DNA of 60,734 nt from an uncultured Planctomycetales bacterium (GCA_964464475.1 CAYXGG010000004.1:70940-131673), one strand, 5' to 3'; positions 18,680-49,409 are shown, counted from the first letter of the stretch. Notes: generated by a model from the sequence alone, not told the origin. Program-made: numbers and translations.

Positions 18680-21600
18680 TTATGGCTCCACCGTTGTTTT
18701 TCTCAAAGGCGACAAAAGAATATAAATACAGGGAATGACGACTAACGTTAAAATGGTTGAAATCGTGATGCCCCCGATCACTACCGTGGCCATCGGTTTA
18801 AAGACTTCCGAACCCGGCCCCCAAGAAAGAGCCGGGGGAATTGCTGCGGCGACCGTAGCCAGCGAAGTCATGATAATAGGCCGCAATCGAATCGAGCCCG
18901 CTTCGGCCATGGCGTCAAAATAAGACTTGCCCTGTTCCCTCAACTGATTGGCGAACTCCACCAGCAAAATTGAATTCTTTTTGACCAACCCCATCAACAA
19001 AACAATACCGATAAAACTATAAATATTGATGGATTGCCCCGTTATCCATAAAGCAATAAACGCTCCCGAGATACTAAAAGGCATAGCGCACAAAATCGTA
19101 AATGGATCCAAATAGCTGTTGAATTGAGACGCAAGCACCATATAAGCCACCAAGACTCCCAGCCAAACAACAAGCCATAATCCGGAAAAAGACTCTTTAA
19201 ATATTTGGGTGTTTCCCGTCATTTCGAGTCGATAGCCTGATGGCAAAATTTTGGCTGCGATCTCTTTGACTCGGTTGACCGCGTCCGTCTGCGATTGCCC
19301 CGTGGCTACATTGGATTGAATCTTAATCGCGCGTTCGCGATTCTGGCGGGTCACGGTCATAGGAGTTTTCTCTTCCACGATTGAAATAACATCCTTGAGT
19401 TGCACACGTTCGCCAAACTGATTCCAGACCCACAACTCGGCAATATCCTGAATTTGTGTTCGCTGCGAAGGAATCAGCCGTACGCGAATATCATAGCGAC
19501 GGCCACCCTGGGTGTATTTACCAACCCTTTCACCCGCGAATAACGCATTGATGGTCGTCCCAATGGATTCGATGCTAACGCCTCGCTCGCTAGCCTTCTT
19601 TCGATCCGGAACAACCCGGACTTCGGAAACTCCCGCCTGAAAATTATTATTCACATCCGTGAAGATTTTATCCTCATTCATACGCTGCTCGATGAGCTCG
19701 CTATATTGAGCCAGCTCACTCCACTGGGGACCCAAAATCATAAACTCCACCGGAAATCCCCGTTGCGCCGAGAGACCACTTAAAGATGGATCCTGCACGA
19801 CTGCTTTAACTTGGGGAACCTGTTTTAAATCTTCTCTTAAGAAATTCATAAAATCCAAATGCGATGGACGCCTTTTAAAAGGCGGCACAATAGGACGATC
19901 TTGGGGTTCTTTCAAGGAAACAATGATTTGACCGCTATTAACTTCACCCCCGCCAAAACCTCCGACCGCTGCAAAAAAACTTTTGACTTCCGGGCGATCA
20001 GCCAAACGCTTTTCCACCGCTTTAAACTTCTGATCAGTAAATTCAATAGATGACCCCGGAGCCGTTTTAAGACGAATGAAAAGCATACTCTGGTCTTCGG
20101 AAGGTAACATTTCCTTTTTGATGAGACCCATCAGCCCCAAAGATGCCACAAAGAAAATTATCGAAACAAACACGATCCATCCCGGTCGACGCAACGATCG
20201 TCTCAGCAAATTTCCATACCCTTGACTTAATCGCTCCATCCCTTGATCCAATCCTTTTCCCAAAAATGACTTTCGTTCCCCCACGGACAAAAACTGTGAG
20301 CAACGCATGGGCGTAAATGTCAACGCCTCAAGCAATGAAATCGCCACCGCCACCGACAGCGTCACCCCAAACTGATAAAAGAATTTACCAATAGCACCCT
20401 GCATGAAAGCTACCGGCAAAAAGATAGCAATAATCGACAGCGAAGCGGCAATAGCCGCCGCCGCGATCTGCCGCGCTCCCTGTAGAGACGACTGACGATT
20501 GGTCAGCCCCATTTGACGATGCCTTACAATATTTTCCAAAACCATAATCGCGTCATCAACAATGATTCCAATCCCCAAAGAAAGCGCCATCATCGTGAAC
20601 GTGTTTAAAGTAAATCCTAAGAAATAAACAACGATGAACGTACCAAGAACTGAGGTGGGAATAGCCAATAAAATATTAAAGGTTGAACTCAAAGACCCTA
20701 AAAACATCCAGCAAACAATCGAAGTAATAATCGCAGAAAGGATCAAAGTAAATTTCAATTCATGGATGGCCTCTTTTACAAACTTCATGCGATTGACGGT
20801 AATCTCCACCTTAAACTCCGGTGGAATATCGCTTTGTATTTCTTGCAATCGCTTCTCCACCGCCTCGCCGACCGCTACTTCGTTAGACCCACGCTGTTTG
20901 CGAATGCCCATACCAACCGCCATTTCACCATTCTTGCGGGAAATACGGCGCACATCCGCCAATCCGTCCTCCACCCTCGCGACATCCTTGATTCGGATCG
21001 GTTTATAAACCGGTCGACCTCCGCGAGAGGAAATAACAATGTTTCCAAATTCCTCGGTATTTAGCGCTTCCCCCATGGAACGCACGTTCATTTCTAAACT
21101 GGACGTTTCCAAGCGTCCGGCTGGAATTTCAGAATGACCCTGCTGAATGGCGTGAATCACGTCCTGCACCGTCAACTCATGCTCATCGAGTTTCTGGGCA
21201 TCAATCCAAACCCGAAGATTGCGCTCTAAGAACCCGCCCAGAAAAACTTCTCCAACTCCCCGAATGGTGGTAAATCTGTCTTGTAAATGGTTTTGAACAT
21301 AATCCATGAGATGGCGGGTCGGCACATCTTTGCCCGACGCCGCGATCCAAATAATAGGCTGGTCTTCCGGATTGGTTTTGGTGACAATAGGTGGATCCAA
21401 TTCGCGCGGTAAAAAGCGCTGCGCTCCCGCGAGTTTAGTCTGAATTTCCTGAACTGCGACATCAATGTCCCGATCCAAATCAAATTCAACACTAACGTTG
21501 GCCAACCCCTGCATCACGTTAGAACTAATTTCGCGTATACCCTGGATCCCCGTGAGCGCCTGCTCAACAATGTCCACGACATCGGTTTCCATGACTTCCG

Positions 21601-21766
21601 GAGCCGCTCCCTCCCAAGTCAATCGCACCGACACCACGGGAAAATCTACATCCGGCAAACGACCCGTTCCTAGCCGAGTCAAACTCACTAAGCCGAAAAA
21701 CATGAGGCCCAGCATGAGCATCCACGCGAATACCGGCCGACGAATCGATAAATCAGAAATCCACAT
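18680..21766 (-). CDS. RND efflux permease (AcrB/HAE1-like)
   Basis: 1028 aa. Typical N-terminus MWISDLSIRRPVFAWMLMLGLMFFG, a 12-TM / two-large-loop organisation, and conserved GIIVDDAIMVLENI. Confidence 0.92.
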   Translation of the reverse strand: MWISDLSIRRPVFAWMLMLGLMFFGLVSLTRLGTGRLPDVDFPVVSVRLTWEGAAPEVMETDVVDIVEQALTGIQGIREISSNVMQGLANVSVEFDLDRDIDVAVQEIQTKLAGAQRFLPRELDPPIVTKTNPEDQPIIWIAASGKDVPTRHLMDYVQNHLQDRFTTIRGVGEVFLGGFLERNLRVWIDAQKLDEHELTVQDVIHAIQQGHSEIPAGRLETSSLEMNVRSMGEALNTEEFGNIVISSRGGRPVYKPIRIKDVARVEDGLADVRRISRKNGEMAVGMGIRKQRGSNEVAVGEAVEKRLQEIQSDIPPEFKVEITVNRMKFVKEAIHELKFTLILSAIITSIVCWMFLGSLSSTFNILLAIPTSVLGTFIVVYFLGFTLNTFTMMALSLGIGIIVDDAIMVLENIVRHRQMGLTNRQSSLQGARQIAAAAIAASLSIIAIFLPVAFMQGAIGKFFYQFGVTLSVAVAISLLEALTFTPMRCSQFLSVGERKSFLGKGLDQGMERLSQGYGNLLRRSLRRPGWIVFVSIIFFVASLGLMGLIKKEMLPSEDQSMLFIRLKTAPGSSIEFTDQKFKAVEKRLADRPEVKSFFAAVGGFGGGEVNSGQIIVSLKEPQDRPIVPPFKRRPSHLDFMNFLREDLKQVPQVKAVVQDPSLSGLSAQRGFPVEFMILGPQWSELAQYSELIEQRMNEDKIFTDVNNNFQAGVSEVRVVPDRKKASERGVSIESIGTTINALFAGERVGKYTQGGRRYDIRVRLIPSQRTQIQDIAELWVWNQFGERVQLKDVISIVEEKTPMTVTRQNRERAIKIQSNVATGQSQTDAVNRVKEIAAKILPSGYRLEMTGNTQIFKESFSGLWLVVWLGVLVAYMVLASQFNSYLDPFTILCAMPFSISGAFIALWITGQSINIYSFIGIVLLMGLVKKNSILLVEFANQLREQGKSYFDAMAEAGSIRLRPIIMTSLATVAAAIPPALSWGPGSEVFKPMATVVIGGITISTILTLVVIPCIYILLSPLRKTTVEP

Positions 21767-23012
21767 CAGTTAAGTCTCCTGCGGCAACCCGTAACGCCCA
21801 GTATAGACGGCGGGTCTCATTTTTTGTCGCGACAACAGCACGCCTGACATCCTGTAAATCTTGAATAGCTTCGAGAATGATCAAGTTATCCACCAGATTT
21901 AAATCATAATCGTTCAACAGCAAATCATGACTTTTCTCGGTTGCCGTCAACGCCTTTGTTAACGCCTGCAAGCGTTGCTGACTGGACTGAAAACGCGTCC
22001 AGGCATTTTCAACTTCAAGTTGTGCACTGCGACGGGCCAGCGCATACTGTAGTTCGGCTTGCCGGACCAATGAATTTTTTTCTTTAACCATGGCGCCGCT
22101 TTTGGGAATCCACATCAACGGCATCGAGAATTCCAGCGTCATATCCCAATCAACGTCATCAGCATTCCCAACACGCTTAGTAAAATAATTACCGTTTAAC
22201 TCCACTGTGGGTAACGCCTTAAGCCGTTCAACCGAAACAGCCTTACGAACACGTTCAATAGCTTTATCGGCAGCAAGGACGTCGGCCCGCAAACCAGCGT
22301 CAATTTCCGACGCCGAAGCATAGGTCATCCCAAAATCAAATGGTTCGTCTTCGATAAGAAACTCAATCGGCTTTCCGGTGAGAAAATGCAAAAGCTGGCG
22401 AGCTTCTGTTAATTTCCCCTTCTGGGTTTCCATATCGGCTTCCACTTGACTTAAGCGCGCTTGCGCGCCGGCGAGCTCGCTAGCACGGGCTTTCCCGAGA
22501 GACTCTCGCTTAGTCAATTCCTCCACCCGTTGATTCAAGGCGACCCGAACAGTCTCCAACGCGTCCAAATCTTCTTGGTACGTCAATTGTAAATAAAAAG
22601 CATTAGCCACATCCTGAAAGAGCAATTCTTTCGCGCGCCGAAGCGCCAGGTTAAATTGTTCCTTTTCATGGCGAACCGATTTCAACAAATTCAATTCTTG
22701 AAAACCACGAAAAAGCGTCTGGGTGAAGGAAAATCGAGCCTCAGGGACTTCTCCGAGAGAAAAATTATTTCGCCCACTACCATCCTGAATCTTTTGAGAA
22801 TAAATAAAATTGGCCTCCGGCAATAGACCCCGAAGGATTTGCTCAAAATGCAACCGAGCCTGGACGATAGCCTCCTCCTGAATCGCTATCTGTTCACTTT
22901 GCTGTAGGGCAAGATGATAACAGTCATTTAAATTCTCTGCGTGGGCGTTAATGCCCCGAAGCATCAAAAAAAGATTCACCCCCATAATAAAAAAAATAAA
23001 GCGTCTTCTCAT
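21753..23012 (-). CDS. TolC-like outer-membrane efflux protein (OEP family)
   Basis: Two-repeat coiled alpha/beta OEP pattern (LNDCYHLALQQSEQIAIQEEAIVQA...). The start is taken at ATG 23012, giving signal peptide MRRRFIFFIMGVNLFLML; the track ORF extends to 23078. The 3' end overlaps the RND start by 14 nt. Confidence 0.8.
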   Translation of the reverse strand: MRRRFIFFIMGVNLFLMLRGINAHAENLNDCYHLALQQSEQIAIQEEAIVQARLHFEQILRGLLPEANFIYSQKIQDGSGRNNFSLGEVPEARFSFTQTLFRGFQELNLLKSVRHEKEQFNLALRRAKELLFQDVANAFYLQLTYQEDLDALETVRVALNQRVEELTKRESLGKARASELAGAQARLSQVEADMETQKGKLTEARQLLHFLTGKPIEFLIEDEPFDFGMTYASASEIDAGLRADVLAADKAIERVRKAVSVERLKALPTVELNGNYFTKRVGNADDVDWDMTLEFSMPLMWIPKSGAMVKEKNSLVRQAELQYALARRSAQLEVENAWTRFQSSQQRLQALTKALTATEKSHDLLLNDYDLNLVDNLIILEAIQDLQDVRRAVVATKNETRRLYWALRVAAGDLTDVDF

Positions 23013-23083
23013 AAATTTGAACCCAAAATTATCAAAATCGGTTCGCTCGACTGAAAAACCAAGCCTCACCACTGACAATAATT

Positions 23084-23212: not shown

Positions 23213-24082
23213 CTAGCTTTCTTCTTCTGGGCGATATTCAAAACCGCTTAAACCAAATGTCCAGACCACGGCTTCATGAATGGTACGAACTGAAGGCGGC
23301 ACACGCAAGGTGTAAAAGACTCCCGTCGATGGGCATTTGACTTTGACTAAATACAAAGGCTCTTCATCCGGATGCCAGGGAACACGCAATAACTCCTGTT
23401 CACCTTGAATATCCACCACCTCATGAACTAATTCATTCAGTAGACGTTCGTAGCCAATTTCTTCCAGACACAAGCGTCGTAACGACGCGTTATCCATCCG
23501 GACAATACGCGCCACGTCAAGTTTATCTTTCTTCAGCAAGCGTTCAATCTTCCCGCTGCATTCTTGACCACGCAAATAAATTTTGCGGGATTTGACGCCG
23601 CCTTGATAATGAAATTCCTTAAAAAAACCATGCGGATAACCATCGACATAGCTTCCCCGCTCTTTCAAACGAGAACCGGGAAACCATTCGGCCCAATCTC
23701 CCTGCAATTTGTCCATCTGGTAATACGCTTCCGATTTCGGAGAACCATCTGCGTACCATTCGCGACGTAATCCGTCAAAAGAACCATTAGTATAATAAGC
23801 CAATAGTTGCGGTTTACCGTTCTCGTGCCAGCGACGAACCAGTCCATGAAGAACGCCTTTATGAAAATTTTCCTCAATCAGGAGAACTCCCTGAGGGGAC
23901 CAGACTTTTCCTGGTCCATGCAATTTTCCTTTCAACAAAAAATAATGAAAATTAATGCTGCCGTCTGGATACTGGCCTACGGTGACCACCTCCAAAGGAT
24001 CTCGCCTGATGACCTCGCTTTTCAGACAATGCCTTCGGTCGGAGTCCTTCAATAATTCATAGACTTCATCAATCCGTGACAT
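23213..24082 (-). CDS. MORN-variant repeat protein (YwqK-like repeats) with an unassigned C-terminal domain
   Basis: Repeats of the G.l.G....W...G.l..E..Y..G..hG type are present (GKLHGPGKVWSPQGVLLIEENFHKGVLHGLVRRWHENGK...). GGAGG lies 9 nt 5' of ATG 24082. Confidence 0.6.
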   Translation of the reverse strand: MSRIDEVYELLKDSDRRHCLKSEVIRRDPLEVVTVGQYPDGSINFHYFLLKGKLHGPGKVWSPQGVLLIEENFHKGVLHGLVRRWHENGKPQLLAYYTNGSFDGLRREWYADGSPKSEAYYQMDKLQGDWAEWFPGSRLKERGSYVDGYPHGFFKEFHYQGGVKSRKIYLRGQECSGKIERLLKKDKLDVARIVRMDNASLRRLCLEEIGYERLLNELVHEVVDIQGEQELLRVPWHPDEEPLYLVKVKCPSTGVFYTLRVPPSVRTIHEAVVWTFGLSGFEYRPEEES

Positions 24083-24189
24083 GACACCAGCCTCCGGCAC
24101 GATATTCTTTTTGTGGATCCTGCAAATGATTCACGTGTCATTATAACAGTCTCGTCAAGTCAGCGACGACAAGTCTATTAAAAATAAAA

Positions 24190-33047: not shown

Positions 33048-34343
33048 TTAATATTTAAGCACGACTTGCGAATAAAGCCAATCCGCGTCATCATCGGCAC
33101 CCGTGTCCCGAACATACTCTCCCGTAAAAAAGTGCGCAGCACCCACTTCAAATTTCACATGTTTGTTTAATTCGTAATTGGCCCGCAGCGATACTTCCTG
33201 GCCCACGTAATACCCCCGCTCGCCGGAAGTCTTTGTGCGCAACGCGACTCCCGCGGAATTAAACCACGAATCTGCGTTACTTTCTAACCAGAAAAAGTTT
33301 GTCTCCCCGGTTAACTTAAGTTTCTCATGAACAGCTAGAACCAGCTGCCCTGCCAACTCACGCATATTCTGCCAACGAAAAAAATCCATCTGCCCATAGG
33401 GCGTATGCGTTGATTGGTAAAGCGGTACAAATGAGTTGGCTTCATCATCATTAGGATCTTGGTCGCCTGTGGCTTGATTATATTCCAATGTCATTTTGGG
33501 TTTCCACTTTAATTGCTTCCAAGTGCGATTGATATCCGCATGCAACGCCCAAGCCCGAATGTCCCGTCCAACCAATTCCCCAAATTGAAAGGGAACTTCT
33601 AAATCATACTGGAACTCGCCCCCTACCTTACCCGAGTGTCTCGCCCCAACGGTATAACGTTCCACGTGGGCCGCCGTGCGATGATCCCAAAGACTCAGGA
33701 AATACCCTTCAAATAAGGGGGACTCTTTTTCTTTCTGAAAACCGCCATAGAATCCACCCAGCTTTTCATCTTCACGCGAGCGGTTAAAATTATTATCATC
33801 GTAATTCACCGTTTGGCCGTAAATGAGATCACTGTAAAATCCCGCTTGATCAATATGCGCGACCGCCGCGTCAAAAGAACGCATACGGTTATTAAACGCG
33901 GGGGCTCCGATCAAACGACCTTTCCCATACTCCAAAATTTGTCGACCAATTTTGACATCCACCCTTGATCCGGCAATGTCTTGCGCTTTAATGTAACCTT
34001 GAAAAAAATCAAAATCATCGACCTGATTCGCCAATGGCTTTAGCTGATACCCCCCTGTCTGAGCATCCAACCCTTCCCAAAACAACTCAAGTTTTTCCTT
34101 TGCTTCCTCATTATTAAAAACTAATTTTCCATTTAAGCGTAACCGGTGAAAGAACAAACTTCCATTATCTTTCCGAGTCTCATTAAAATCATAATCCTTA
34201 CGAAACTCGTAGCGAAATCTTTCCTCGACCCCGACACTGGGCTTCCAGCCTAAGGGTATTTCCCCAGCATAAAGATCCATGCTCCCAAAAAAGATTGCCA
34301 ACAATAAATTGGTTATCCGCCAAACTTTTAAACAATAACGCAT
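33048..34343 (-). CDS. outer-membrane beta-barrel porin (alginate-export-like family)
   Basis: Signal peptide from ATG 34343. It shows an alternating amphipathic pattern, ERFRYEFRKDYDF...FFHRLRLNGKL, and a C-terminal ..VVLKY. Confidence 0.5.
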   Translation of the reverse strand: MRYCLKVWRITNLLLAIFFGSMDLYAGEIPLGWKPSVGVEERFRYEFRKDYDFNETRKDNGSLFFHRLRLNGKLVFNNEEAKEKLELFWEGLDAQTGGYQLKPLANQVDDFDFFQGYIKAQDIAGSRVDVKIGRQILEYGKGRLIGAPAFNNRMRSFDAAVAHIDQAGFYSDLIYGQTVNYDDNNFNRSREDEKLGGFYGGFQKEKESPLFEGYFLSLWDHRTAAHVERYTVGARHSGKVGGEFQYDLEVPFQFGELVGRDIRAWALHADINRTWKQLKWKPKMTLEYNQATGDQDPNDDEANSFVPLYQSTHTPYGQMDFFRWQNMRELAGQLVLAVHEKLKLTGETNFFWLESNADSWFNSAGVALRTKTSGERGYYVGQEVSLRANYELNKHVKFEVGAAHFFTGEYVRDTGADDDADWLYSQVVLKY

Positions 34344-34450
34344 ACGACTCCATATTTTTAGTAATGATTTTTTATATAGAAAAGAATTATAGACCATAGC
34401 CACAATCCGGAAATCATTACTTTCTACGAGAAAACTAAGTACTATTACGC

Positions 34451-34945: not shown

Positions 34946-36004
34946 CTAGATTTCAAATTCAAAGAAGGTAACTTCCTTGGGTGTACAATAAATTTCGTCA
35001 TTGCGCGCTATTTTTAAAAGTCGGTTTTCTTCCTGACTAATTTCAACTTGCAGTAAATTACCGTCGCCAGAACGAGCCTCAATTTTTACCATCGAGCCCG
35101 CGGAGTTAACAAACACGACTACGGCTTTGATCGAATTATTGGCCAAGGGAGTTCGAGAAACCGTCAGCTGATGTGGACGCACATACATCTTGGCGGCTTT
35201 CTTCCCCTCCTCTTTAGTGGGCGCTTCAGTTTTCTTTAAAGAAGATAAATTCTTATTTTCTTCCACGCGAGCATGAAAAAGATTCACGTTACCAAGAAAA
35301 TTCAAAACAAAAACCGACGCCGGATTATGATAAACCTCCTCGGGAGTTCCCACCTGCTCAATCTTCCCCTGATTCATCACTACAATTTTATCAGCCACTT
35401 CCAACGCTTCCTCTTGATCGTGAGTTACGAATAACGTCGTAATATGCAATTCATCATGGAAACGCCGCAACCACTGGCGTAATTCTTTCCGCACTTTGGC
35501 ATCAAGCGACCCAAAGGGTTCGTCCAGTAACAAAACTTTGGGCTCGATCGCCAAAGCCCGGGCCAAGGCAATCCGCTGACGCTGCCCGCCGGATAACTGC
35601 GCCGGATAGCGGTCAGCCACCCAATCTAGTTGAACAAGCTTAAGCAACTCGTGTACCTTTTCTTTGATCTTGTCATTACTGGGCCGAACGTTCTTAGGCT
35701 TAACCCTGAGTCCAAAAGCAATATTTTCAAATACGGTCAGGTGACGAAACAATGCGTAATGCTGAAAAACAAAACCAACATTGCGATCTTTGGTCTTTTT
35801 TTCTTTGGCATCCTCGCCATGAAATAGTATTTCTCCCTGTTCGGCGCTCTCTAAGCCCGCGATGATTCGCAACAAAGTCGTCTTCCCTGATCCGGAAGGA
35901 CCTAATAGCGCAATCAGCTCTCCCGTCTGAATATTCAAATGGACTTGGTCTAAAGCCTTGAAATGACCGAAATTCTTCGTAATATTTTTTACCTCGATAC
36001 TCAT
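34946..36004 (-). CDS. cysA: sulfate/thiosulfate ABC transporter ATP-binding protein
   Basis: [31 protein letters not shown], and a C-terminal TOBE-like extension. It sits in a cysT-cysW-cysA arrangement. Confidence 0.9.
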
Positions 36005-36849
36005 GACGGAGTCTCCGTTTTTCGTAACGCTTTTAACTCTTCTCTGAATTTATGTTCCACCGCGGACTTCAAAACCAACGTGACTAAAGCCAACATAGCT
36101 AAAACCGACGCTACCGCGAACGCCGCCGTAAACTGATACTCGTTATACAAAATCTCAATGTGCAACGGAAGCGTGTTCGTCAATCCACGAATATGCCCCG
36201 AGACAACCGACACCGCCCCAAATTCGCCCATCGCCCGCGCATTGCACAAGATCACGCCGTAAAGCAAACCCCACTTAATATTTGGTAGCGTGACCCGCCA
36301 AAACGTCTGCCAACCGCTGGCACCGAGCGTTAGTGCGGCTTCCTCTTCTTCATTCCCCTGCGTTTTCATGACAGGGATCAATTCCCTGGCCACCATCGGA
36401 AACGTCACAAAGATCGTCGCCAGGATAATCGCCGGTGGCGCGAAAATAATTTTAATCCCCTGCTGTATCAGCCAAGGCCCCAGCAAACCTTGAGCACCAA
36501 ACAGCAAAACATAGATAAGCCCGGAAATTACCGGAGAGACAGACAAAGGTAAATCGATCAACGTCAACAAAAAGTTTTTGCCTCGAAAATCAAATTTAGC
36601 AATACACCAGGAAGCGGCTACCCCAAAAACTAAATTAAGGGGAACCGCGATCCCAGCCGTCAACAACGTCAACTTCAAGGCCGACCAAGCGTCTTCATCC
36701 GCCAATGATTTCCAATAAAGAGCCCATCCTTTTCCAAACGCATTAACAAAAACTGCCGCCAGCGGCACAAAAATAATTAACGTAAATAATGTTAACGCCA
36801 GCGCAATCAAAATACGCCTAACCCAAAGCGACTCTCCTCGGATAAGCAT
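36001..36849 (-). CDS. cysW: sulfate ABC transporter permease
   Basis: BPD-type permease with an EAA-like loop ([21 protein letters not shown]). ATGA overlap with cysA. Confidence 0.85.
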
Positions 36850-36850
36850 C

Positions 36851-37687
36851 TTAATTCATTCCTATCTTTCTTGACGAAAATTGCTGGATAAGGTTAGTCA
36901 CGGTCAATAGAATAAATGAAACGCCCAACATCACTATCGCAATGGCCGTCGCCCCCGCGTAATCAAACTGTTCAAGTTTAGTCATAATCAGCAAAGGAGC
37001 TATCTCCGTTTTGCCCGGCATATTGCCGGCTATAAAAATAACGGAACCATATTCCCCGACACCTCGGGCAAATGCTAACGTAAATCCCGTAATTAACGGT
37101 GGGACCAAATTAGGGAAAAGCACGCGGCTGAATGTTTGCCAGCGATTAGCCCCTAAACTCGCCGCGGCGTCTTCAAGTTCGGCATCCAACTCCTGCAAAA
37201 CAGGTTCTAGCGTTCGTACGACAAAAGGGAGCCCGATGAAAACCAGCGCGACCGTGACGCCAAACGGGCTATACGCCGACTGGATTCCCCAAGAATACAA
37301 ATATTTTCCAATCCAACCATTTTGAGAGTATAACGCGCTTAACGTAATCCCTGCGACTGCGGTGGGCAATGCAAAAGGCAAGTCCACAAAAGCATCAATG
37401 ATCTTCTTACCCGGAAAAGAGTACCTTACCAGCACCCAAGCCAGCAGAAATCCCACGAAAACATTAATAACACTGGCAATTAGGCTGGCAAAAAAAGTTA
37501 GCCGATAGGCCGCCAGAGAACGCGGGCTGGCCACCGCCTCCCAGAATTCTTTCAATCCCATTGTCGATGATTTAACTAACAACATCGACAATGGGATTAA
37601 GACAATTAAACTTAAATAAAATACGGTATATCCTAAAGATAATTTAAAACCCGGAAGATTATGCCGTTGTTTTTTGCGATTGATCAT
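36851..37687 (-). CDS. cysT: sulfate ABC transporter permease
   Basis: BPD-type permease (EDAAASLGANRWQTFSRVLFP), immediately 5' of cysW. Confidence 0.85.
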   Translation of the reverse strand: MINRKKQRHNLPGFKLSLGYTVFYLSLIVLIPLSMLLVKSSTMGLKEFWEAVASPRSLAAYRLTFFASLIASVINVFVGFLLAWVLVRYSFPGKKIIDAFVDLPFALPTAVAGITLSALYSQNGWIGKYLYSWGIQSAYSPFGVTVALVFIGLPFVVRTLEPVLQELDAELEDAAASLGANRWQTFSRVLFPNLVPPLITGFTLAFARGVGEYGSVIFIAGNMPGKTEIAPLLIMTKLEQFDYAGATAIAIVMLGVSFILLTVTNLIQQFSSRKIGMN

Positions 37688-37750
37688 AGCGACATTCTAC
37701 CCATAAATATCCAGGATGCAATAACGTCTCCAGAAATACTTAACAAGAGT

Positions 37751-38767
37751 CTAATTTTGATAAATTTGATCAAAAAATCCCTTATCAGCAAAATGCTTTT
37801 CCTGAGCGTGCTTCCATCCGCCGAAATCACGATCAATTGTCAACAAATCGACTTTAGGAAATTTATCCGCATATTTTTCAGCAACTTTTGCCGATCTGGG
37901 ACGAAAATGATGTTTGGCAATAACTTCTTGGGCTTCCTCTGAATAAAGGAATTTCAAATATTCTTCAGCGATCTTCCGATTACCTTTGCGGTCCGCGTTG
38001 CGTTCAACGACCGCTACCGATGGTTCAGCCAAAATACTGATTGAAGGGATAACCACTTCAAACTTATCCGGACCCAAATCTTTGATCGCCAAAAAAGCTT
38101 CATTTTCCCAAGCAATCAACACATCTCCGATACCCCGCTCAACAAATGTCGTTGTGGATCCACGAGCCCCTGAATCCAAAACCGGAACATTCTTAAACAA
38201 AGCCTTCAAAAATTCTTTGGCCTTCAACTCATCATTATTATGTTGACGTAAGGCATAGCCCCAAGCCGCTAAATAATTCCACCGGGCCCCACCCGATGTT
38301 TTGGGGTTAGGTGTAATCACCGAGATCCCGGCCCGGACCAAATCGTTCCAATCCTTTATATTCTTGGGATTACCTTTTCGAACCAAAAAAACGATTGTTG
38401 ACGTATACGGAGCGCTGTTGTCAGGCAACAGCTGTTGCCAATTTTTAGGAAGAAGGCCTGACTTCTCGGCAATAGCATCAATATCATAGGCCAACGCCAA
38501 AGTAACAACATCGGCTTCCAACCCATCAATCACCGAACGGGCCTGCTTCCCACTCCCCCCGTGAGATTGGTTGATTTTGACCTCTTGCCCACCTAGGCTT
38601 TGCCAATGTTCATTAAATAAATTATTGTATTCCTCATACAGCTCTCTCGTCGGATCATAAGAAACATTCAATAAAGCTCCTTTTTTTCCGGCCGCAAACG
38701 CATTGCCGCTCATAAAGATTCCCACCATGAATGCCAAAACTCCCACTAAAATTGTTCGATGTAACAT
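37751..38767 (-). CDS. sbp: sulfate-binding periplasmic protein
   Basis: [18 protein letters not shown]...W.......[29 protein letters not shown] is a characteristic Sbp/CysP N-terminal region. Confidence 0.9.
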
Positions 38768-38799: not shown

Positions 38800-40152
38800 T
38801 TAATAACTGACCTGAAAACGGGTTAATACGGCGTTTTCTGGCTTACGATCTTCTCGTGAGACATTACCATTCTCAAACTTGGTTTGTTCAAAACCCAAAG
38901 CCACCTTGACGTTCTTATTCAACCACCAGTTTAACCCTAGCCCCCATGCGTCTGCCGTGGAGATAGCGGTCGTCAAACTGGCAAAACCATTTTTGAAAGC
39001 TTCATCGTCAATCTTAAGGTGTTCGTATCGACCCACCAATTCCAAAGCACCCCAGTTGCCTTCAGCCAAATTAAAAGGCTTCAGCGGCGTGATACCGCGA
39101 TAGGACGCGTTCTCGCCTGTCAGAACATACGTCCCAACGACCTGCCATGCTGTGTTGGTAAAGTCTTCTGAAAAAGTGCGGTTACTTTGGACTCTCGTAA
39201 CGGCCTGTTCTGAAGATATGTATTCGCCCAATACACCAAAAGAATCATGATAAAAATACGCTTGAGGAGAGAACCGCAGGTGCTCTCCATCCGCCGTGAC
39301 ACCGGAAGCGTAATTAAAAATAGCGGCCTGCCCTGCGGAACGATAGGTAGGCAGACTGCTTCCTTCTTTATGGCCATAACTGATGGCCCCACCGACACCT
39401 AACCCTTTAAAAAAACTATCCCCGTTTTTGAACGGGTGGGCGAACAGACGACCAACAACTTCCTTATCATTATTGGTGTCCGTATCCGAGCTCCCCGCAT
39501 CGGATGTTCCGTTAAACGCCCCCACGGCATAACTGAGCGTTTCATTAAAAATATCACCGGAGAGCTGTACCCCTACATCTCGATTGGGGCCCAAGTTACC
39601 AGTCAAACCCAACTCCGTAAAAGCTCCCACGGCATCCGATTGCAACCGCTCCAACGCAAAGGGTGCTTTAAATTTACCCGCCCTAAATTTAGCTTTAGGA
39701 AAGTATTTGTACTCAATGTAACCATCAACAAGTTGTTGTTGGCCACTGCCAAAATCAGGCATCAGGTAAAAATCAAAATCTTTGGCAACCGTCCCTTCAA
39801 AAATAGGCCTGGCCCGACGGACCAAAAAGCTATCGGTATAACCTAAATCTTTTTTATCATCGGCAATAAAACGCGCATCGGCCTGCAGCAAGCCACGGAC
39901 TCTTAATTTAAAGCTATCATCCGGAGATTTTATACTAAAACCATCTTTAGTCGATGCCGTGACTAACGGAATTTCCGCCGCCTTTTTGGCTTTATCTTCT
40001 TTTTCGATCTCTAATTGGCGCTTAAGGATTGCCACAGCTTGCTCTAATTCGGCCAACCGACTTTCAAGCGAAGGGTCTGCAAACACTTGCGTTGGATTAG
40101 AAAAGATTGTGAATACCATCATGATTGTGAATAAATACCGGAACAATTTCAT
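38800..40152 (-). CDS. anion-selective porin, OprO/OprP (porin O_P) family, with N-terminal coiled coil
   Basis: Signal peptide, then [20 protein letters not shown], then a beta-barrel with K/R-rich early strands ([15 protein letters not shown]...[12 protein letters not shown]). GGAGG lies 5' of the ATG. Confidence 0.7.
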
Positions 40153-43120: not shown

Positions 43121-46100
43121 CTATTCTCGCCAATCGCCACCCAACGCTTTAATAAGTTCAACAGTCGAAATAAGACTGCGGTTTAAAATGCGAACGGAAT
43201 CAAGTTCGGACTGCAGACGCGATCTTTCCGTATCCACGACATCCAGAAAATTAACCAGACCCTGGCGATAACGGGCATTGGAAATATCCGCCGATTGCCG
43301 CGCGGCGTCCATCACCTTTTGTTGAACCAGCCACTGCTCGCGCCCCAAACGGATGCGGGCCAGAGCGTTTTCTACTTCCGAAAAAGCCACTAAAATACGC
43401 TGTCGATATTGGGCCGTCGTTACTTCGTGTTCAGCGCGTGCGGCCTCCAGATTAGCGCGATTAGCGCCACCGTTAAAAACCGGAATAGTAATATTCGGCC
43501 CCAATGACCAGAATCGACTTTCCCAATTAGCGACATCGCGAAGTTCAACACTTTCTAATCCGGCGGCTCCGGTCAGTGTGATTTTCGGAAAGAAAGCCGC
43601 CTGAGCAGCCCCGATACGCGCGTTAGCTGCCGCCATCAGACGCTCGCTTTCAGCGATATCCGGACGTCGTTCCAGCAAAAACGCCGGTAGTCCCGGCGGA
43701 ATCACCGGAGGCACAATATCCAATGGCTTTACCTCAAGCGTAAAATCCGATGCTGGTTTTCCTAATAAAACCGCCAAAGCGTTTTCCGCTTCCGCTCGCT
43801 GACGGGCCACATCAATCTTGTCGGCTTCGGCTTTCGCCAATTCAGTTTGCACGCGCGAAACATCCAATTCACTGACAACCCCCGATTGATAACGATCCTC
43901 AACCAACGACAGCGCATTGCGACGCAAATCCAAAGCCTTATCAAAAATCTCCATCTCGGTCTCTAATTCACGCAAAATAAAATAATTCCTGGCTACGTCC
44001 GCGGTCACGGACAAAAGCACCGTTTGAAAAGCCGCCTCACTGGCCGATACTTCCGAGTTAGCAGCGGCAAACAAATGCTCCACTCTTCCCCAAACATCCA
44101 GCTCATAACTTAAATCAAAAGGCATTGAATATTTATCATGCGGATTATCCACGAAAAATCCCGAGGAAACATTTTGAGAGGTGTGTTCTCGAGTATACGA
44201 AGGTTTAGCGTCGACATGCGGAAAAAAATCCGCGCGGCTTAATCGCGCCAGGGCTCGAGATTTATTAAGGGAAGCAAACGCCACCTTCAAGTTTTGATTA
44301 TGCTCAATCGCCTGTTGCTGCAATTCATTTAATAACGGATCACGAAAAACCTTCCACCACTGCCCCCGCGGCACATCGTCGCGAGGCTCAGCCTGCTTCC
44401 AGTTGGGGTCCTCAACTTTCCAACCCGCGGGCATGGGCGCTTCCGGACGCTGATAGGGAACGCCCCTCGAGCAACCTGACGACAAAACCATCAGGACTAT
44501 CAGTACCGCCGCCTTCACTGGTTCGGCAATCAAAGGGCTAACCGGAACTTTGGGTTGATTTTTCTTACCGCTTAACAACACGTATACGACCGGAATAACG
44601 ACCAAGGTCAAAAATGTACTGGTGATCATACCCCCTACGGCCGCGACCCCCAAAGGCCGACGGCTTTCCGCCCCGGCGCCAAATCCAATCGCGATCGGCA
44701 AAATACCGGCAATCGTCGCTGTCGCCGTCATTAAAATGGGACGCAACCGAATCAATCCTGACGCCAACATCGCTTCCCGGGCGTCTTTGCCCTTAGCCAT
44801 TTGCTGATTGGCAAAATCAACCAGCAAAATACCATTTTTAGTAACCAGCCCAATGAGCAGAATCATTCCGATTTGACTAAACAAATTCAAACCCATCGCT
44901 GGAACGCCAAAATAATTCATCAGCCACAACGAAAAGAACGCGCCAAACGCCGCCAGCGGCACCGTCAGCATAACCGTCAACGGATGGACCAAACTTTCAA
45001 ATTGCGCGGCCAATACCATATAAATAACCAGCATAGACAACACCAAAACGAATAACGTTTCCTGACCAGATTCCAACAAGTCCTGAGCCTCACCGGTCCA
45101 TTCATACCGAAAATCTGCCGGCAATTCCTTCTTTAATAATTCCTCAACGTTCTTGACCGCGGTCCCGAGAGGAACCCCGATCGGCGTGCCTTCAATCGTC
45201 GCCGAACGGAAACGGTTAAAATGATTAATCGCGCTCGGCCCCGCACCAGTTTCATAACTGACGACATTGCTTAACTGAATCAGCTGACCTTGGTCATTGC
45301 GCACATATAGGCGATCCAAATCCGCCGGCGTTAAACGAGATTCCCGTCGCAGCTGCACAATCACGTCATATTCCTTACCCTGTAAATTCAGTTTGCTTAA
45401 ATCCAACCCACCAAACAAAATCTGCAACGTGTGCGAAATAGATTCGATGGAAACACCCAACGCCGCCGCGCGATTACGATCAATATAGACACGTAATTCG
45501 GGTTTATTTAATTCGAACGTAGAACGAACATTTGCGAGATACCCCGAAGTTCGTAACTTTCCACTGAACTCCGCGGCAAAACGGCTCAGCTCTTCCAAAT
45601 TCTGACTTTGCAAAACCAGTTGAAACGGCTGAGAAAAACCACCACCGATCGCTTTGGGAACAATGGGGATCACAATCGCCCCTTCGATGTTCATAAAAAA
45701 CTGCCCGGCCAGACCCGTAGGCCCGCCAATTATGTCACGAATATGACGATCTCGTTCCTCCTTAAGACGTATAAATGATAGCCCCTCCGCCGAGCGTCCG
45801 GGACCGCCACGCGAAAGCGCCACCGCAGAGAAATAACCCTCAACTTCCGGGACAGAAGCAATGATGCCTTCTGCTTTCTTAACCATGCGATCAGTGTATT
45901 CACTAGTGGAACCTTCCGGGGCGATAACAATGCAAAACAAACGTCCCTTGTCTTCATCGGGGAGAAACTCCCGACTCAATTTAGAGTAAAAAAATACTGA
46001 AGACGCGCAGATGACCAACGCGACAACAACAATAACCCAGGGAAACTTAAGCGCCCAGCGTAACACTTTTTCATACAGATTCGTCGTGGCGGTAAACGCG

Positions 46101-47617
46101 CGTTCAAAGATACCCACCAAACCTCGTTTGGTATCTACGTGAACCGGCTTCAACAATCGAGCCGAAATCATCGGCGTTAAGGTCAACGCAACAAAAGCAG
46201 AAATGAGGACTGAGAATGAAAGCGCCACGGCAAATTCAATAAACAACCGGCCGGTGACGCTGGTTTGGAACGCCATCGGCAAGAAGACCGCGACCAGCGC
46301 GATCGTCGTCGCGATAACAGCAAAACCGATTTCTTTCATGCCTTGGTACGCCGCGGCCAGAGGTTGCATGCCTTCTTCCACGTGACGATAAATATTTTCC
46401 AAAACAATAATGGCGTCATCAACAACCAGCCCAATAGCTAAGACAAAAGCCAGCATGGTCACGATGTTGACCGAATAACCAAAAATATAAAGCACGCCAA
46501 AAGTGGCAATGATCGACACGGGGATGGTGATGGAAGGAATAAACGTTGAACGGACATTATGCAAGAACACATAAATAGTGAGAATAACCAACACAAAAGC
46601 GATCCCCAGCGTTTCCCAGACTTCAAGAATGGATTTCTCGACGTAAATAGACTCGTCATAAGGAACCGCCATATTGACGCCAGCCGGCAATAATGGTTTA
46701 AGACGTTCCATTTCTTTCTTTATACCGTTGGCCACGTCAATCGTGTTGGCTTTGGACTGCTTTACAATCCCGATCCCCACGCACGGCTTGGAATTAAATC
46801 TGGCCACGGCACGTTCATCTTCAACACCGACCGCCGCGAACCCTACATCCCGCAACCGCACAAAATTATCCTTCTCTTGGCGGAGGACTAAATCATTGAA
46901 TTCTTCCGGGGTCTTCATTTCACCAAGGGTCTCAATAGAAAGTTCTCGTTGCAAACTTTCCACCCGACCGCTTGGCAGTTCGACATTTTGATTCGCCAGG
47001 GCTCGCTCGACATCCTGAACCGTCACGCCACGCGCCGCCATCTTCTCTGAATCAAGCCACAGACGGATGGCAAAACGTTTGGCCCCGCCAAAAATGACTG
47101 AGCTCACTCCCGGAACAGTTTGCAATCGGTCTTTAAGGGTATTCTCGGCGAGTGTTGTTAACTCGAGGGTGGAATATTGATCGCTAAATAAGGCGATCCA
47201 CAGCGCGGGCTGCGCGTCGGCGTCCTGCTTGGCCACGATGGGTTCATCAATATTTTCAGGCAAGCGACCGCGCACACGCGCCACGCGATCTCGCACGTCC
47301 TGCGCCGCCAAATCAACACTGCGGGACAAATCAAACTCAATCGTAATCGAACTGACTTGTTCGCGACTCTCGCTGGTGAGTTGTTTGATGCCTTCAATCG
47401 AGTTGAGCGTCTCTTCTAGGGGTTCGGTGATTTGGGTCTCAATGACGGCGGCACTGGCCCCCGCGTAAACGGTAGTCACGTTCACAATCGGCGGATCCAC
47501 GTCGGGTAGTTCGCGTACTGGCAAACGGCTGATCCCGATGATCCCAAACAATACCAGCCCCAAACTCATCATCATCGCTAGGACCGGCCGTTGAATACTT
47601 AATTCTGAAAGCTTCAT
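43121..47617 (-). CDS. RND efflux permease fused in frame to an OprM/NodT-type outer-membrane factor (1498 aa)
   Basis: Residues 1 to about 1030 form a complete RND permease (MKLSELSIQRPVLAMMMSLGL..., GLVVDDAIIVLENI, ends ..VVIPVVYVLLSGKK). With no stop codon it continues into VKAAVLIVLMVLSSGCSRG, a lipoprotein signal with lipobox. A full two-repeat OMF of about 450 aa follows. An in-frame GTG at 44518 could start the OMF part separately. The Cys codon is at 44471-44473. Confidence 0.85.
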   Translation of the reverse strand: MKLSELSIQRPVLAMMMSLGLVLFGIIGISRLPVRELPDVDPPIVNVTTVYAGASAAVIETQITEPLEETLNSIEGIKQLTSESREQVSSITIEFDLSRSVDLAAQDVRDRVARVRGRLPENIDEPIVAKQDADAQPALWIALFSDQYSTLELTTLAENTLKDRLQTVPGVSSVIFGGAKRFAIRLWLDSEKMAARGVTVQDVERALANQNVELPSGRVESLQRELSIETLGEMKTPEEFNDLVLRQEKDNFVRLRDVGFAAVGVEDERAVARFNSKPCVGIGIVKQSKANTIDVANGIKKEMERLKPLLPAGVNMAVPYDESIYVEKSILEVWETLGIAFVLVILTIYVFLHNVRSTFIPSITIPVSIIATFGVLYIFGYSVNIVTMLAFVLAIGLVVDDAIIVLENIYRHVEEGMQPLAAAYQGMKEIGFAVIATTIALVAVFLPMAFQTSVTGRLFIEFAVALSFSVLISAFVALTLTPMISARLLKPVHVDTKRGLVGIFERAFTATTNLYEKVLRWALKFPWVIVVVALVICASSVFFYSKLSREFLPDEDKGRLFCIVIAPEGSTSEYTDRMVKKAEGIIASVPEVEGYFSAVALSRGGPGRSAEGLSFIRLKEERDRHIRDIIGGPTGLAGQFFMNIEGAIVIPIVPKAIGGGFSQPFQLVLQSQNLEELSRFAAEFSGKLRTSGYLANVRSTFELNKPELRVYIDRNRAAALGVSIESISHTLQILFGGLDLSKLNLQGKEYDVIVQLRRESRLTPADLDRLYVRNDQGQLIQLSNVVSYETGAGPSAINHFNRFRSATIEGTPIGVPLGTAVKNVEELLKKELPADFRYEWTGEAQDLLESGQETLFVLVLSMLVIYMVLAAQFESLVHPLTVMLTVPLAAFGAFFSLWLMNYFGVPAMGLNLFSQIGMILLIGLVTKNGILLVDFANQQMAKGKDAREAMLASGLIRLRPILMTATATIAGILPIAIGFGAGAESRRPLGVAAVGGMITSTFLTLVVIPVVYVLLSGKKNQPKVPVSPLIAEPVKAAVLIVLMVLSSGCSRGVPYQRPEAPMPAGWKVEDPNWKQAEPRDDVPRGQWWKVFRDPLLNELQQQAIEHNQNLKVAFASLNKSRALARLSRADFFPHVDAKPSYTREHTSQNVSSGFFVDNPHDKYSMPFDLSYELDVWGRVEHLFAAANSEVSASEAAFQTVLLSVTADVARNYFILRELETEMEIFDKALDLRRNALSLVEDRYQSGVVSELDVSRVQTELAKAEADKIDVARQRAEAENALAVLLGKPASDFTLEVKPLDIVPPVIPPGLPAFLLERRPDIAESERLMAAANARIGAAQAAFFPKITLTGAAGLESVELRDVANWESRFWSLGPNITIPVFNGGANRANLEAARAEHEVTTAQYRQRILVAFSEVENALARIRLGREQWLVQQKVMDAARQSADISNARYRQGLVNFLDVVDTERSRLQSELDSVRILNRSLISTVELIKALGGDWRE

Positions 47618-48726
47618 GACTTCCCTTCACCATTCCCCATGGTCGCTTCCTCCGGAGGTGAAACCGGAGCCGGTTCTCCTTCATAACGCACGGACACTTT
47701 CATCCCCGGGCCTAATTTCTGATGGCCTTCCACAATAACGATTTCTCCTTCCGAAAGGCCTTCCAAAATCTCCACCGTCCCAGCCATACGGATTCCCACT
47801 TTGACCAACTTATTGACCGTCGAATCGTCGGCATTGACCACATAAACCTGCACGTCGTCTCCTTTAGGAATCAACGCCGCTTCCGGAACCACAATGACAT
47901 CCTCTTTTTTATTCACGATTAATTTCAAATTGGCAAACATGCCATGGCGCAGCTTGCCTTCAGGATTAGCAACTTTGGCTTTAACGAGCGCGGTGCGAGA
48001 CAACTCATCAATTTTAGGATCAATAAAATAAACGTCGCCACCGAACTTCTCTCCGGGGTAAGCGGCCACTTCCATTTCAACAGTTTGCCCCACCGATACG
48101 GTATTCAAATATCGCTCCGGCACTCGAAAATTAGCTTTCATGGGATCCTGACTAACCAGAAAACTGATGCTGGTTCCTTTGGTAATAAATTGCCCCACAC
48201 TGACTTTACGTTCTCCCATGACCCCATCAAAGGGCGCGACAATCGTTGAGTCTTTCAACAAAGCTTTGTTCAGCTCTACGTCGGCGCGATTCACTTCCAA
48301 TGACGCGACGGCCTGATCATATTCCTGGCGGGAAACCGCACCACTCGCAATCAGGGGCTGATAACGCTCAGTCGTCGTCTCAGCAAAACGCAGGTTAGCT
48401 TGCGCCTGTTCTAAAGCGGCCTTTAATTTTCGCTGATCAATCAATAGAATCTCGGTTCCCTTCTTGACTTTCTGACCCTCGCTGAAATCAATCTTTTCAA
48501 CCGCGCCGTCAATCTCACTTTTGATTTCCACCATCTCGTTGGCTTCCAGAGTGCCCACCAAAGATATTTTTTCTGCGATAGGCTGTTTGATCGCTTTAAA
48601 GCCAACCACAGGAATTACCATTTGCGGAGGCGGCGGTGCAGCATCACTTTTTTGTTCACAACCGGAAACGCAAAAAAGAACCCAAGAAAACAGAATCAAA
48701 TTTAAACCTAGAACTTGAAAACGCAT
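47614..48726 (-). CDS. RND membrane-fusion (periplasmic adaptor) lipoprotein
   Basis: Signal with lipobox (LFCVSGC) from ATG 48726, with GAGGA 8 nt upstream. It has biotinyl-lipoyl-like and coiled-coil hairpin regions. ATGA overlap with the RND start. Confidence 0.9.
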   Translation of the reverse strand: MRFQVLGLNLILFSWVLFCVSGCEQKSDAAPPPPQMVIPVVGFKAIKQPIAEKISLVGTLEANEMVEIKSEIDGAVEKIDFSEGQKVKKGTEILLIDQRKLKAALEQAQANLRFAETTTERYQPLIASGAVSRQEYDQAVASLEVNRADVELNKALLKDSTIVAPFDGVMGERKVSVGQFITKGTSISFLVSQDPMKANFRVPERYLNTVSVGQTVEMEVAAYPGEKFGGDVYFIDPKIDELSRTALVKAKVANPEGKLRHGMFANLKLIVNKKEDVIVVPEAALIPKGDDVQVYVVNADDSTVNKLVKVGIRMAGTVEILEGLSEGEIVIVEGHQKLGPGMKVSVRYEGEPAPVSPPEEATMGNGEGKS

Positions 48727-48781
48727 AAGCTTATCCTCAGAGGGGTCAATTAGATGAACTACCAACTATTCAAACACCACG

Positions 48782-49222
48782 TTAAACCAAGTTAGCTACC
48801 ACCTGCCGCAAAACTTGCTTACATATCTCTAAATTTTTCTTAGCAATGCTGCGCTGAGACTCCAACAAAGTTTTTTGGACCAGGGCCAATAACGCCTGCT
48901 GTAAATCTTTGCCTTTATTCGTCAAATAAATCAATTTCTGACGGCCATCCGCGAGATCGGGCGTTCGAACGACCAAATTGCGTTTTTCCAACCCATCTAA
49001 CAAACGAGTGATACTGGTTTTATCTTTGCACGTGCATCCGGCCAGTTCTTTCTGGCTCTGGCCATTTTTCTGCCAAAGATTCATGAGTATCGCCCATTGC
49101 TCGCAGGTAACATTATGGCCGGCCTTTTCAAAATTCTGATTAAGCCTGTGCGCCAACGTGCGCCCGGCCCGACCCACAACATAACCTAACGTCTCTTCTA
49201 AAGAATTGGATTGAACTTTCAT
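48782..49222 (-). CDS. MarR-family transcriptional regulator
   Basis: 146 aa with a winged HTH (QWAILMNLWQKNGQSQKELAGCTCKDKTSITRLLDGLEKRNLVVR..D..D.R). Confidence 0.9.
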   Translation of the reverse strand: MKVQSNSLEETLGYVVGRAGRTLAHRLNQNFEKAGHNVTCEQWAILMNLWQKNGQSQKELAGCTCKDKTSITRLLDGLEKRNLVVRTPDLADGRQKLIYLTNKGKDLQQALLALVQKTLLESQRSIAKKNLEICKQVLRQVVANLV

Positions 49223-49362: not shown

Positions 49363-49409
49363 TTGCATATGCAACTAGCGAAGTATAAAGCCAAAGCGTA
49401 AACTGTCAA
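49360..49409 (-). promoter_or_regulatory. sigma70-like promoter plus 18-bp perfect palindrome (candidate MarR operator)
   Basis: Minus strand: TTGACA (49409-49404), 16 nt, TATACT (49387-49382), then TAGTTGCATATGCAACTA (49377-49360) over the predicted transcription start. Confidence 0.45.

Follow-up and report, generated by a model that had tools for sequence, protein, structure and literature searches.

The stretch of DNA considered here (the window) comprises 60,734 nucleotides (nt) from an uncultured Planctomycetales bacterium (GCA_964464475.1, CAYXGG010000004.1:70940-131673), and its minus strand carries between positions 43121 and 47617 a single ATG-initiated open reading frame (ORF) of 1498 codons, free of stops under translation table 11, in which a resistance-nodulation-division (RND) permease runs directly into an outer-membrane factor (OMF). 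Tripartite RND pumps, which textbooks present as assemblies of three separate polypeptides, form the principal intrinsic machinery of multidrug resistance in Gram-negative bacteria. The window has a GC content of 46%, and the TonB-dependent receptor, porin O/P and alginate-export-type protein that it encodes show that the host has an outer membrane. The layout of the fused gene and of the cluster to which it belongs is as follows.

43121..47617, minus strand: fused gene, RND permease with linker, internal lipoprotein signal and OMF; 165.0-kDa precursor; stop codon at 43121-43123
44570..47617, minus strand: RND (HAE1-type) permease domain, amino acids (aa) 1-1016; 12 transmembrane (TM) segments, with the domain boundary at the cytoplasmic end of TM12
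44513..44569, minus strand: basic linker, aa 1017-1035, GKKNQPKVPVSPLIAEPVK; combines the cytoplasmic tail of the RND part and the n-region of a signal peptide
44474..44512, minus strand: h-region and lipobox, aa 1036-1048, AAVLIVLMVLSSG; predicted to serve as a 13th membrane pass or internal signal peptide
44471..44473, minus strand: Cys1049; predicted diacylglyceryl-modified +1 residue, with a predicted signal peptidase II cut between G1048 and C1049
43124..44473, minus strand: predicted mature OMF lipoprotein, aa 1049-1498, OprM/NodT type, 50.5 kDa
47614..48765, minus strand: gene for the periplasmic adaptor (membrane fusion protein, MFP); TIGR01730 RND_mfp at 278.7 bits against a cutoff of 94.9; the longest ORF starts with TTG
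48782..49222, minus strand: MarR-family regulator gene (Pfam MarR, E 9.6e-14), first of the MarR-MFP-(RND-OMF) cluster
49382..49409, minus strand: candidate operon promoter upstream of the MarR gene, sigma-70-like, TTGACA-16-TATACT, 11/12 consensus matches

The adaptor gene is co-oriented with the RND gene, and its TGA stop shares two letters with the start codon of the fused gene (ATGA). Promoter-like sites across the region, counted as consensus matches only, stay at chance level in total, promoter and terminator scans of the junction gave nothing above chance, and an Rfam search of the window returned no RNA family and hence neither rRNA nor tRNA. The computed masses are 165.0 kDa for the precursor, 114.5 kDa for the RND part with a retained signal helix (aa 1-1048) and 50.5 kDa for the mature OMF.

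The permease part is matched by Pfam ACR_tran (PF00873) over aa 4-1015, which covers profile positions 2-1020 of 1021 at 1016 bits, and it aligns over aa 7-1014 with residues 5-1028 of AcrB and over aa 4-1015 with residues 2-1027 of MexB (E about 1e-151 to 1e-165). Its hydropathy peaks fit the RND architecture of 12 TM segments and two large periplasmic loops, with an extra peak at aa 1029-1047. Residues D400, D401, K927, R957 and T964 are invariant in an alignment of 70 homologues and presumably correspond, judging from the motif context and from AcrB numbering, to the proton-relay residues D407, D408, K940, R971 and T978 of AcrB on TM4, TM10 and TM11. The scores for named multidrug RND subfamilies remain below their cutoffs (NF033617, 1045 against 1250; TIGR00915, 825 against 940), and the protein therefore belongs to the HAE1 permeases without being an equivalog of any named pump.

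For the OMF part, NCBIfam TIGR01845 (outer_NodT) matches aa 1041-1494 with positions 2-459 of its 460 and reaches 400.6 bits, well above the cutoff of 210.05, and Pfam OEP matches two stretches. The best comparisons with the PDB are OprM (E 1.5e-67) and an OprJ-like protein (E 8.3e-68); Cys1049 pairs with Cys1 of mature OprM (1wp1, CSLIPDYQRPEAP), and the stretch before Cys1049 aligns with the signal peptide of the OprJ-like 9j3d. An AlphaFold2 (AF2) model of aa 960-1498, built from the 70-sequence alignment, has a mean predicted local distance difference test (pLDDT) score of 83.6, with most of the OMF core above 90, and consists of TM11, TM12, a low-confidence coil at aa 1020-1031 (the linker, pLDDT below 50), a 16-residue helix at aa 1032-1047 (model residues 73-88) and a confident OMF protomer. 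In Foldseek searches the modelled OMF reaches template-modelling scores of 0.81-0.85 to OprN, OprM, OprJ and CusC (E about 1e-27), in keeping with the protomer fold of OprM, in which alpha-barrel helices are combined with 4 beta-strands. Both domains are full length and look functional, and the original prediction that an RND permease and an OMF are encoded as one ORF of 1498 aa was confirmed by the stop-free frame together with the two full-length domain matches.

Junction signal and candidate start codons

At the junction (...VVYVLLSGKKNQPKVPVSPLIAEPVKAAVLIVLMVLSSGCSRG, divided by the predicted cut into ...VVYVLLSGKKNQPKVPVSPLIAEPVKAAVLIVLMVLSSG and CSRGVPYQRPEAP) a lipobox signal had been proposed, and it was recovered as LSSG/C with Cys1049 as the cysteine, the slash marking the predicted cut. 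The stretch ...K-AAVLIVLMVLSSG-C, preceded by a positively charged n-region, fits the lipobox pattern of PROSITE PS51257, {DERK}(6)-[LIVMFWSTAG](2)-[LIVMFYSTAGCQ]-[AGS]-C. Some 1030 residues of the ORF precede the signal, whereas lipoprotein signals stand at the N-terminus of the protein, and it is this position that sets the case apart; no credible internal start was identified.

When the 70 full-length fused homologues that make up class 1 were aligned, the lipobox cysteine was found to be invariant (70/70), with glycine at position -1 in 69/70 and leucine at -3 in 39/70, and the family consensus reads [LFA]-[STNA]-G-C. The linker after TM12 varies in sequence and carries a median net charge of +4, with a minimum of +1, while the uncharged stretch before the cysteine measures 13 aa in the window and a median of 16 aa (range 13-23) among the fused homologues. 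The N-terminal signals of 53 unfused OMFs, measured in the same way, have an uncharged stretch with a median of 13 aa and a range of 11-24. In the linker and the hydrophobic stretch it is the character that is conserved among the 70 homologues and not the sequence; since the hydrophobic stretch is short and variable, the element appears to have stayed a signal peptide rather than to have become a long, specifically packed TM helix.

Three in-frame start candidates lie at the window junction, namely GTG at 44518-44516 (Val1034), TTG at 44533 (Leu1029) and ATG at 44491 (Met1043), of which the ATG falls inside the hydrophobic stretch and is too late for a signal peptide. No motif resembling a Shine-Dalgarno (SD) sequence was found upstream of any of the three, though many other genes of the window have GGAGG or AGGAG 6-10 nt before their ATG. 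The original prediction of a junction lacking an SD sequence and bearing an in-frame GTG at 44518 was borne out on both counts, except that the GTG is not alone, the TTG and the ATG being in frame as well.

Among 15 fused loci available at the DNA level, two (L084 and L171) have no ATG, GTG or TTG between TM12 and the cysteine; the start candidates in the others lack a properly spaced SD sequence, the best being two weak AAGG matches. At the protein level, 9/70 class-1 members contain no Met, Val or Leu in the sole interval that would still leave an n-region and an h-region, and Met is present in the linker of only 13/70. Judged by sequence, independent initiation with canonical codons would be impossible in some members and is unsupported in the rest, and for the window gene it appears unlikely. 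A linker Met in another class of fused proteins (LMKLG..., class 3 below) was considered as a relic OMF start and rejected, since the unfused RNDs of L092 and L122 end with the same tail, LMKLGLKKKP...

Spread of the fusion and its unfused relatives

Among 5.8 billion proteins searched, at least 70 are fused homologues of full length (1475-1562 aa), at 56-75% identity and 100% coverage. Those carrying names are mostly from metagenome-assembled genomes (MAGs) of Candidatus Omnitrophica/Omnitrophota, and identical fused proteins recur in independent assemblies from different samples: P0015 is present in both Logan and NCBI, and P0041 occurs in 42 collection blocks, its contigs measuring up to 558 kb. 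A sister clade of 13 proteins (class 2) shares the MarR-MFP context and has an RND part 64-68% identical to that of the window, which is followed by an Arg-rich linker, a hydrophobic stretch, a site of the AxA type (e.g. LPARA/EE) and a TolC-like OMF without the cysteine. The 90%-identity cluster of the class-2 protein P0111 also holds shorter members (51-1158 aa) that are annotated as 'outer membrane protein' or as 'multidrug efflux pump' and are probably fragments from contig ends.

Scanning species-representative genomes with the OMF part brought up class 3, in which a different AcrB/MexB-like RND is joined to a NodT-like OMF whose cysteine is replaced (...LLFTIVSAKA/GWLTVGPDY). This very abundant clade (loci L094, L098, L100 and L115 from Verrucomicrobiota, L096 and L097; proteins P0290-P0409) has source names from Verrucomicrobiota, Limisphaerales and Pedosphaera and, from single MAGs in which binning errors are possible, Methylomirabilota and Acidiferrales; for one Verrucomicrobiota member the best 120 matches are all fused, at 80-97% identity. 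In classes 2 and 3 a signal-peptidase-I-type AxA or SxA site stands directly before the conserved GPDY or the mature N-terminus. Unfused NodT-like OMFs without the cysteine occur in Verrucomicrobia too (L121, L122, L154), and with the class-3 clade they point to non-lipidated NodT-family channels in that phylum.

A deeper, word-index-free search of 1.84 billion representatives with aa 700-1498 as query, clustered at 50% identity, added at least 16 further fused clusters of full length and about 7 that are truncated, at 26-40% identity; one of the clusters includes entries from Acidobacteriota/Bryobacteraceae, and nearly all have a hydrophobic stretch followed by [GAS]C or AxA at the junction. 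Fused proteins are listed in databases under generic names such as 'RND permease' or 'outer membrane subunit'. The database check that had been proposed for long RND proteins with a C-terminal OMF yielded hundreds of relatives in several phyla, and these confirm that the fusion is real and evolutionarily fixed, neither a sequencing error nor a chance in-frame overlap.

Scans of genome contigs were less productive: the full-length class-1 alignment picked up generic RND patterns, 80 of the 80 loci among the matches listed being unfused RNDs from other phyla, and the window OMF used as a single query gave no match. Five loci with matches to residues 1-1494 (L003, L021, L024, L031, L063) were rejected as fusions because they consist of adjacent separate genes, and two long frames in high-GC DNA, L007 (2003 aa) and L120, were rejected as read-through of non-coding sequence or of an alternative frame.

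A co-oriented, adjacent adaptor gene is kept in every fused locus retrieved by exact-protein match, and a MarR gene occupies the same position in L081, L082/83, L084/85, L086/87, L088 and L171. The fused operon L169 has a TetR-family regulator upstream (1329-1904) in place of a MarR-family one, and in L170 no regulator adjoins the adaptor gene, so that the fused system does not depend on one particular regulator being present.

In a neighbour-joining tree of the RND parts fused and unfused proteins are interleaved, so that fusion or fission must have happened repeatedly. The unfused operon L088 is orthologous to the fused L169, with OMF parts that are 69% identical and junction DNA that can be aligned. 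In L088 the RND ends in ...KRKRKNK-stop, and after 17 nt the OMF begins with ATG-KSILMSFMVFLFLTGC (L088 9100-9145); the two junctions differ by a 2-nt indel, the stop codon and the start codon. Because RND and OMF of L088 lie in different frames, a plain change from stop to sense would not fuse them. The comparison of the two junctions shows how the fusion is likely to have arisen.

Predicted biogenesis and competing explanations

Several established principles bear on how such a chain might be handled. The C-terminus of RND permeases is cytoplasmic and positive charges are held on the cytoplasmic side of the membrane; a hydrophobic segment that follows positive charges inserts in an N-in/C-out orientation and exports what comes after it; Lgt modifies lipoboxes and LspA cuts before the cysteine; and Cys1 of OprM is the anchor of the protein in the outer membrane. 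We consider it likely that the window gene is a fixed gene fusion which encodes a tripartite-pump polyprotein that is cleaved after export of its OMF part. The MarR-MFP-(RND-OMF) cluster would be transcribed as a unit, with the fused gene translationally coupled to the adaptor gene through the ATGA overlap, and a single 165-kDa precursor would be made from the ATG at 47617. Its 12 RND TM segments would insert in the inner membrane and leave the C-terminus in the cytoplasm, as in AcrB, where the lysine-rich linker would remain. The 13-residue hydrophobic stretch would then act as an internal signal in N-in/C-out orientation, forming a 13th pass, either transient or retained, that drives Sec-dependent export of the OMF, after which Lgt would lipidate Cys1049 and signal peptidase II (LspA) would cut between Gly1048 and Cys1049. 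The OprM-like lipoprotein of about 50 kDa would be released to the outer membrane and trimerise there, the RND protein (about 114 kDa) would retain the signal peptide as an extra C-terminal helix, and the three parts would assemble as a normal RND-adaptor-OMF pump. The benefit could be an equimolar and co-localised synthesis of permease and channel. As the helix leads straight into Cys1049, an uncleaved chain would be unable to bring the OMF to the outer membrane; the lack of a spacer, together with a peptidase site that is universally retained, argues that cleavage would be obligatory.

Several points weigh against this reading. We know of no precedent for LspA or Lgt acting on a signal peptide behind 12 TM segments, and no Lgt, LspA or Lol genes were seen within the 60-kb window. 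The window lipobox has Ser and not Leu at -3 (LSSG/C), which lies within the PROSITE pattern but is not the optimum, and the in-frame GTG and TTG of the window linker leave room for internal initiation independent of an SD sequence. The interleaving of fused and unfused proteins in the tree fits near-neutral evolution as well as a selected advantage, and the repeated gains and losses may equally reflect near-neutral change made harmless by signal-peptidase cleavage. Single-chain translation, export, lipidation, cleavage, a selective advantage and 1:1 stoichiometry are all steps that we infer from the sequences.

Among the competing explanations, that of two separate genes which merely share a frame, with the OMF translated from GTG 44518 or TTG 44533 and read-through minor or non-functional, has the most in its favour and is still improbable. 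In-frame GTG or TTG codons do occur in the linkers of the window gene and several homologues, initiation at Val1034 would produce a short signal, (M)KAAVLIVLMVLSSGC, that is plausible for a lipoprotein, and the unfused L088 also has just a weak SD sequence before its OMF start. However, none of more than 200 fused homologues has a stop that ends the RND frame, which separate genes would not maintain, and the candidates are not preceded by the SD-like motifs common for genes of the window; the start-free linkers of L084 and L171, the nine class-1 proteins without a suitable Met, Val or Leu and the rarity of Met (13/70) stand against it as well. It is less probable still that the fusion is permanent and uncleaved, with a true 13th TM helix and a tethered OMF that would form a single-chain pump or a periplasmic duct anchored in the inner membrane. 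The ORF is indeed continuous, AF2 models the hydrophobic stretch as a helix and the class-3 proteins have lost the lipobox cysteine, but a lipobox or an AxA site is conserved exactly at the junction in every class, and the uncharged stretch, at 13 aa in the window and a median of 16, is short, variable in sequence and like a signal peptide. Cys1049, moreover, is homologous to Cys1 of OprM and follows the helix immediately, which would keep a tethered chain from forming the canonical channel.

That the junction stems from an error of sequencing or assembly, or that a stop was lost recently in this genome in the manner of a pseudogene, can be regarded as extremely unlikely. For this genome the junction is read from the assembled sequence, and the closest unfused operon differs by just a small indel and a stop; yet the architecture recurs in hundreds of independently assembled homologues from several phyla, with identities as low as 26-30%, and the 70-homologue alignment shows clear purifying selection on both halves. 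The original prediction had left two readings side by side. Its true fusion, with the signal acting as a 13th TM helix and cleaved by signal peptidase II, is favoured by every comparison made: by a frame kept in hundreds of divergent homologues, by the invariant cysteine, by the lipobox or AxA site in independent fused lineages and by the start-less linkers in some of them. In the other reading the artefact is rejected by the homologues, internal initiation is left as unlikely, and a lost stop codon holds in an evolutionary sense only, given that the unfused L088 exists, and not otherwise, the fused state being fixed and conserved.

Surrounding genes, known systems and meaning

Elsewhere in the window a second RND system occupies 18680-23078 on the minus strand, where the gene for a TolC-like OMF (21753-23078) overlaps that for an RND permease (18680-21766) by 14 nt; here the order is OMF then RND, the genes are separate, no periplasmic adaptor gene is adjacent, and the neighbours code for a DUF6745/MORN protein (23213-24100) and a DUF3465 protein (18151-18627). 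The segment 33048-40152, also on the minus strand, contains a sulfate/molybdate-type ABC importer (34946-38767; binding protein, two permeases and an ATPase with a TOBE domain) flanked by a homologue of the phosphate-selective porin O/P (38800-40152) and an alginate-export-type outer-membrane protein (33048-34403). Further minus-strand genes encode a protein of 1010 aa with a VIT domain as its sole match (6125-9157) and a GH94-like protein of 906 aa from the cellobiose/chitobiose phosphorylase family (14984-17704).

The obvious counterparts of the fused system are MexAB-OprM and AcrAB-TolC. As in operons of the mexA-mexB-oprM type, the same three components appear in the same order, adaptor, RND and OMF, behind a regulator of the MarR type; the RND part can be aligned with MexB and AcrB over its whole length, and the OMF, which has the same fold, aligns with OprM from Cys1 to the C-terminus. 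Unlike in MexAB-OprM, RND and OMF form one ORF without a stop, a spacer or an SD sequence, the OMF signal is internal and follows 12 TM segments, and a cleaved RND protein would bear an extra C-terminal helix. The function is that of an ordinary MexAB-OprM-like pump; what differs is the architecture of the gene and of its biogenesis, a matter of packaging and not of new function.

The nearest mechanistic precedent known to us is FbcH of Bradyrhizobium japonicum, the cytochrome b-c1 polyprotein studied by Thony-Meyer and colleagues, which reportedly contains an internal signal sequence that is cleaved after membrane insertion. In FbcH, too, an internal signal peptide links a polytopic protein of the inner membrane, whose C-terminus lies in the cytoplasm, to a partner that is exported, and signal-peptidase cleavage is reported to yield the two mature subunits of one complex. 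The proteins are unrelated, however, the FbcH cut is of the signal peptidase I type and both of its products stay at the inner membrane, whereas here the second product would be a lipoprotein destined for another membrane. The polyproteins of flavi-, pesti- and bunyaviruses are similar in that internal signals set an alternating topology and cleavage on the trans side gives stoichiometric products, but they use the signal peptidase of the eukaryotic endoplasmic reticulum, and their proteins are unrelated too.

Subunit fusions recur in transport machines, as described in two reviews for fused dimeric adaptors (DSY0927), SecDF and permeases of the MacB type joined to a nucleotide-binding domain (PMC4446572; PMC8277102). 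Unlike the proposed RND-OMF polyprotein, these join parts of the same compartment and are not cleaved. Full-text literature searches found no description of a natural RND-OMF fusion, in agreement with the earlier statement that no characterised one was known, and none is mentioned in the searched text of the same two reviews (PMC4446572; PMC8277102).

Whether RND-OMF polyproteins represent a widespread and overlooked biogenesis route, in which one precursor is cut at its internal signal peptide by LspA (or by signal peptidase I in the classes without the cysteine) into a transporter of the inner membrane and a lipoprotein channel of the outer membrane, and the signal is kept as a functional 13th RND helix, is in our estimate evenly balanced. 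A practical consequence is a systematic annotation problem, as pump components will be miscounted in Omnitrophota, Verrucomicrobiota and other environmental phyla. Signal peptidases, including LspA with Lgt, can probably act on a signal behind 12 TM segments, which widens the scanning for lipoproteins and signal peptides, and RND proteins with an extra C-terminal helix are predicted to exist. The fusion also offers a natural experiment on the control of RND:OMF stoichiometry and co-assembly. If the polyprotein reading is true, the fused gene would encode the first bacterial polyprotein, as far as we know, with two products in different membranes and the first LspA substrate, again to our knowledge, whose signal is not N-terminal, and it would be a natural device that enforces a 1:1 stoichiometry of RND to OMF and their co-localised assembly.

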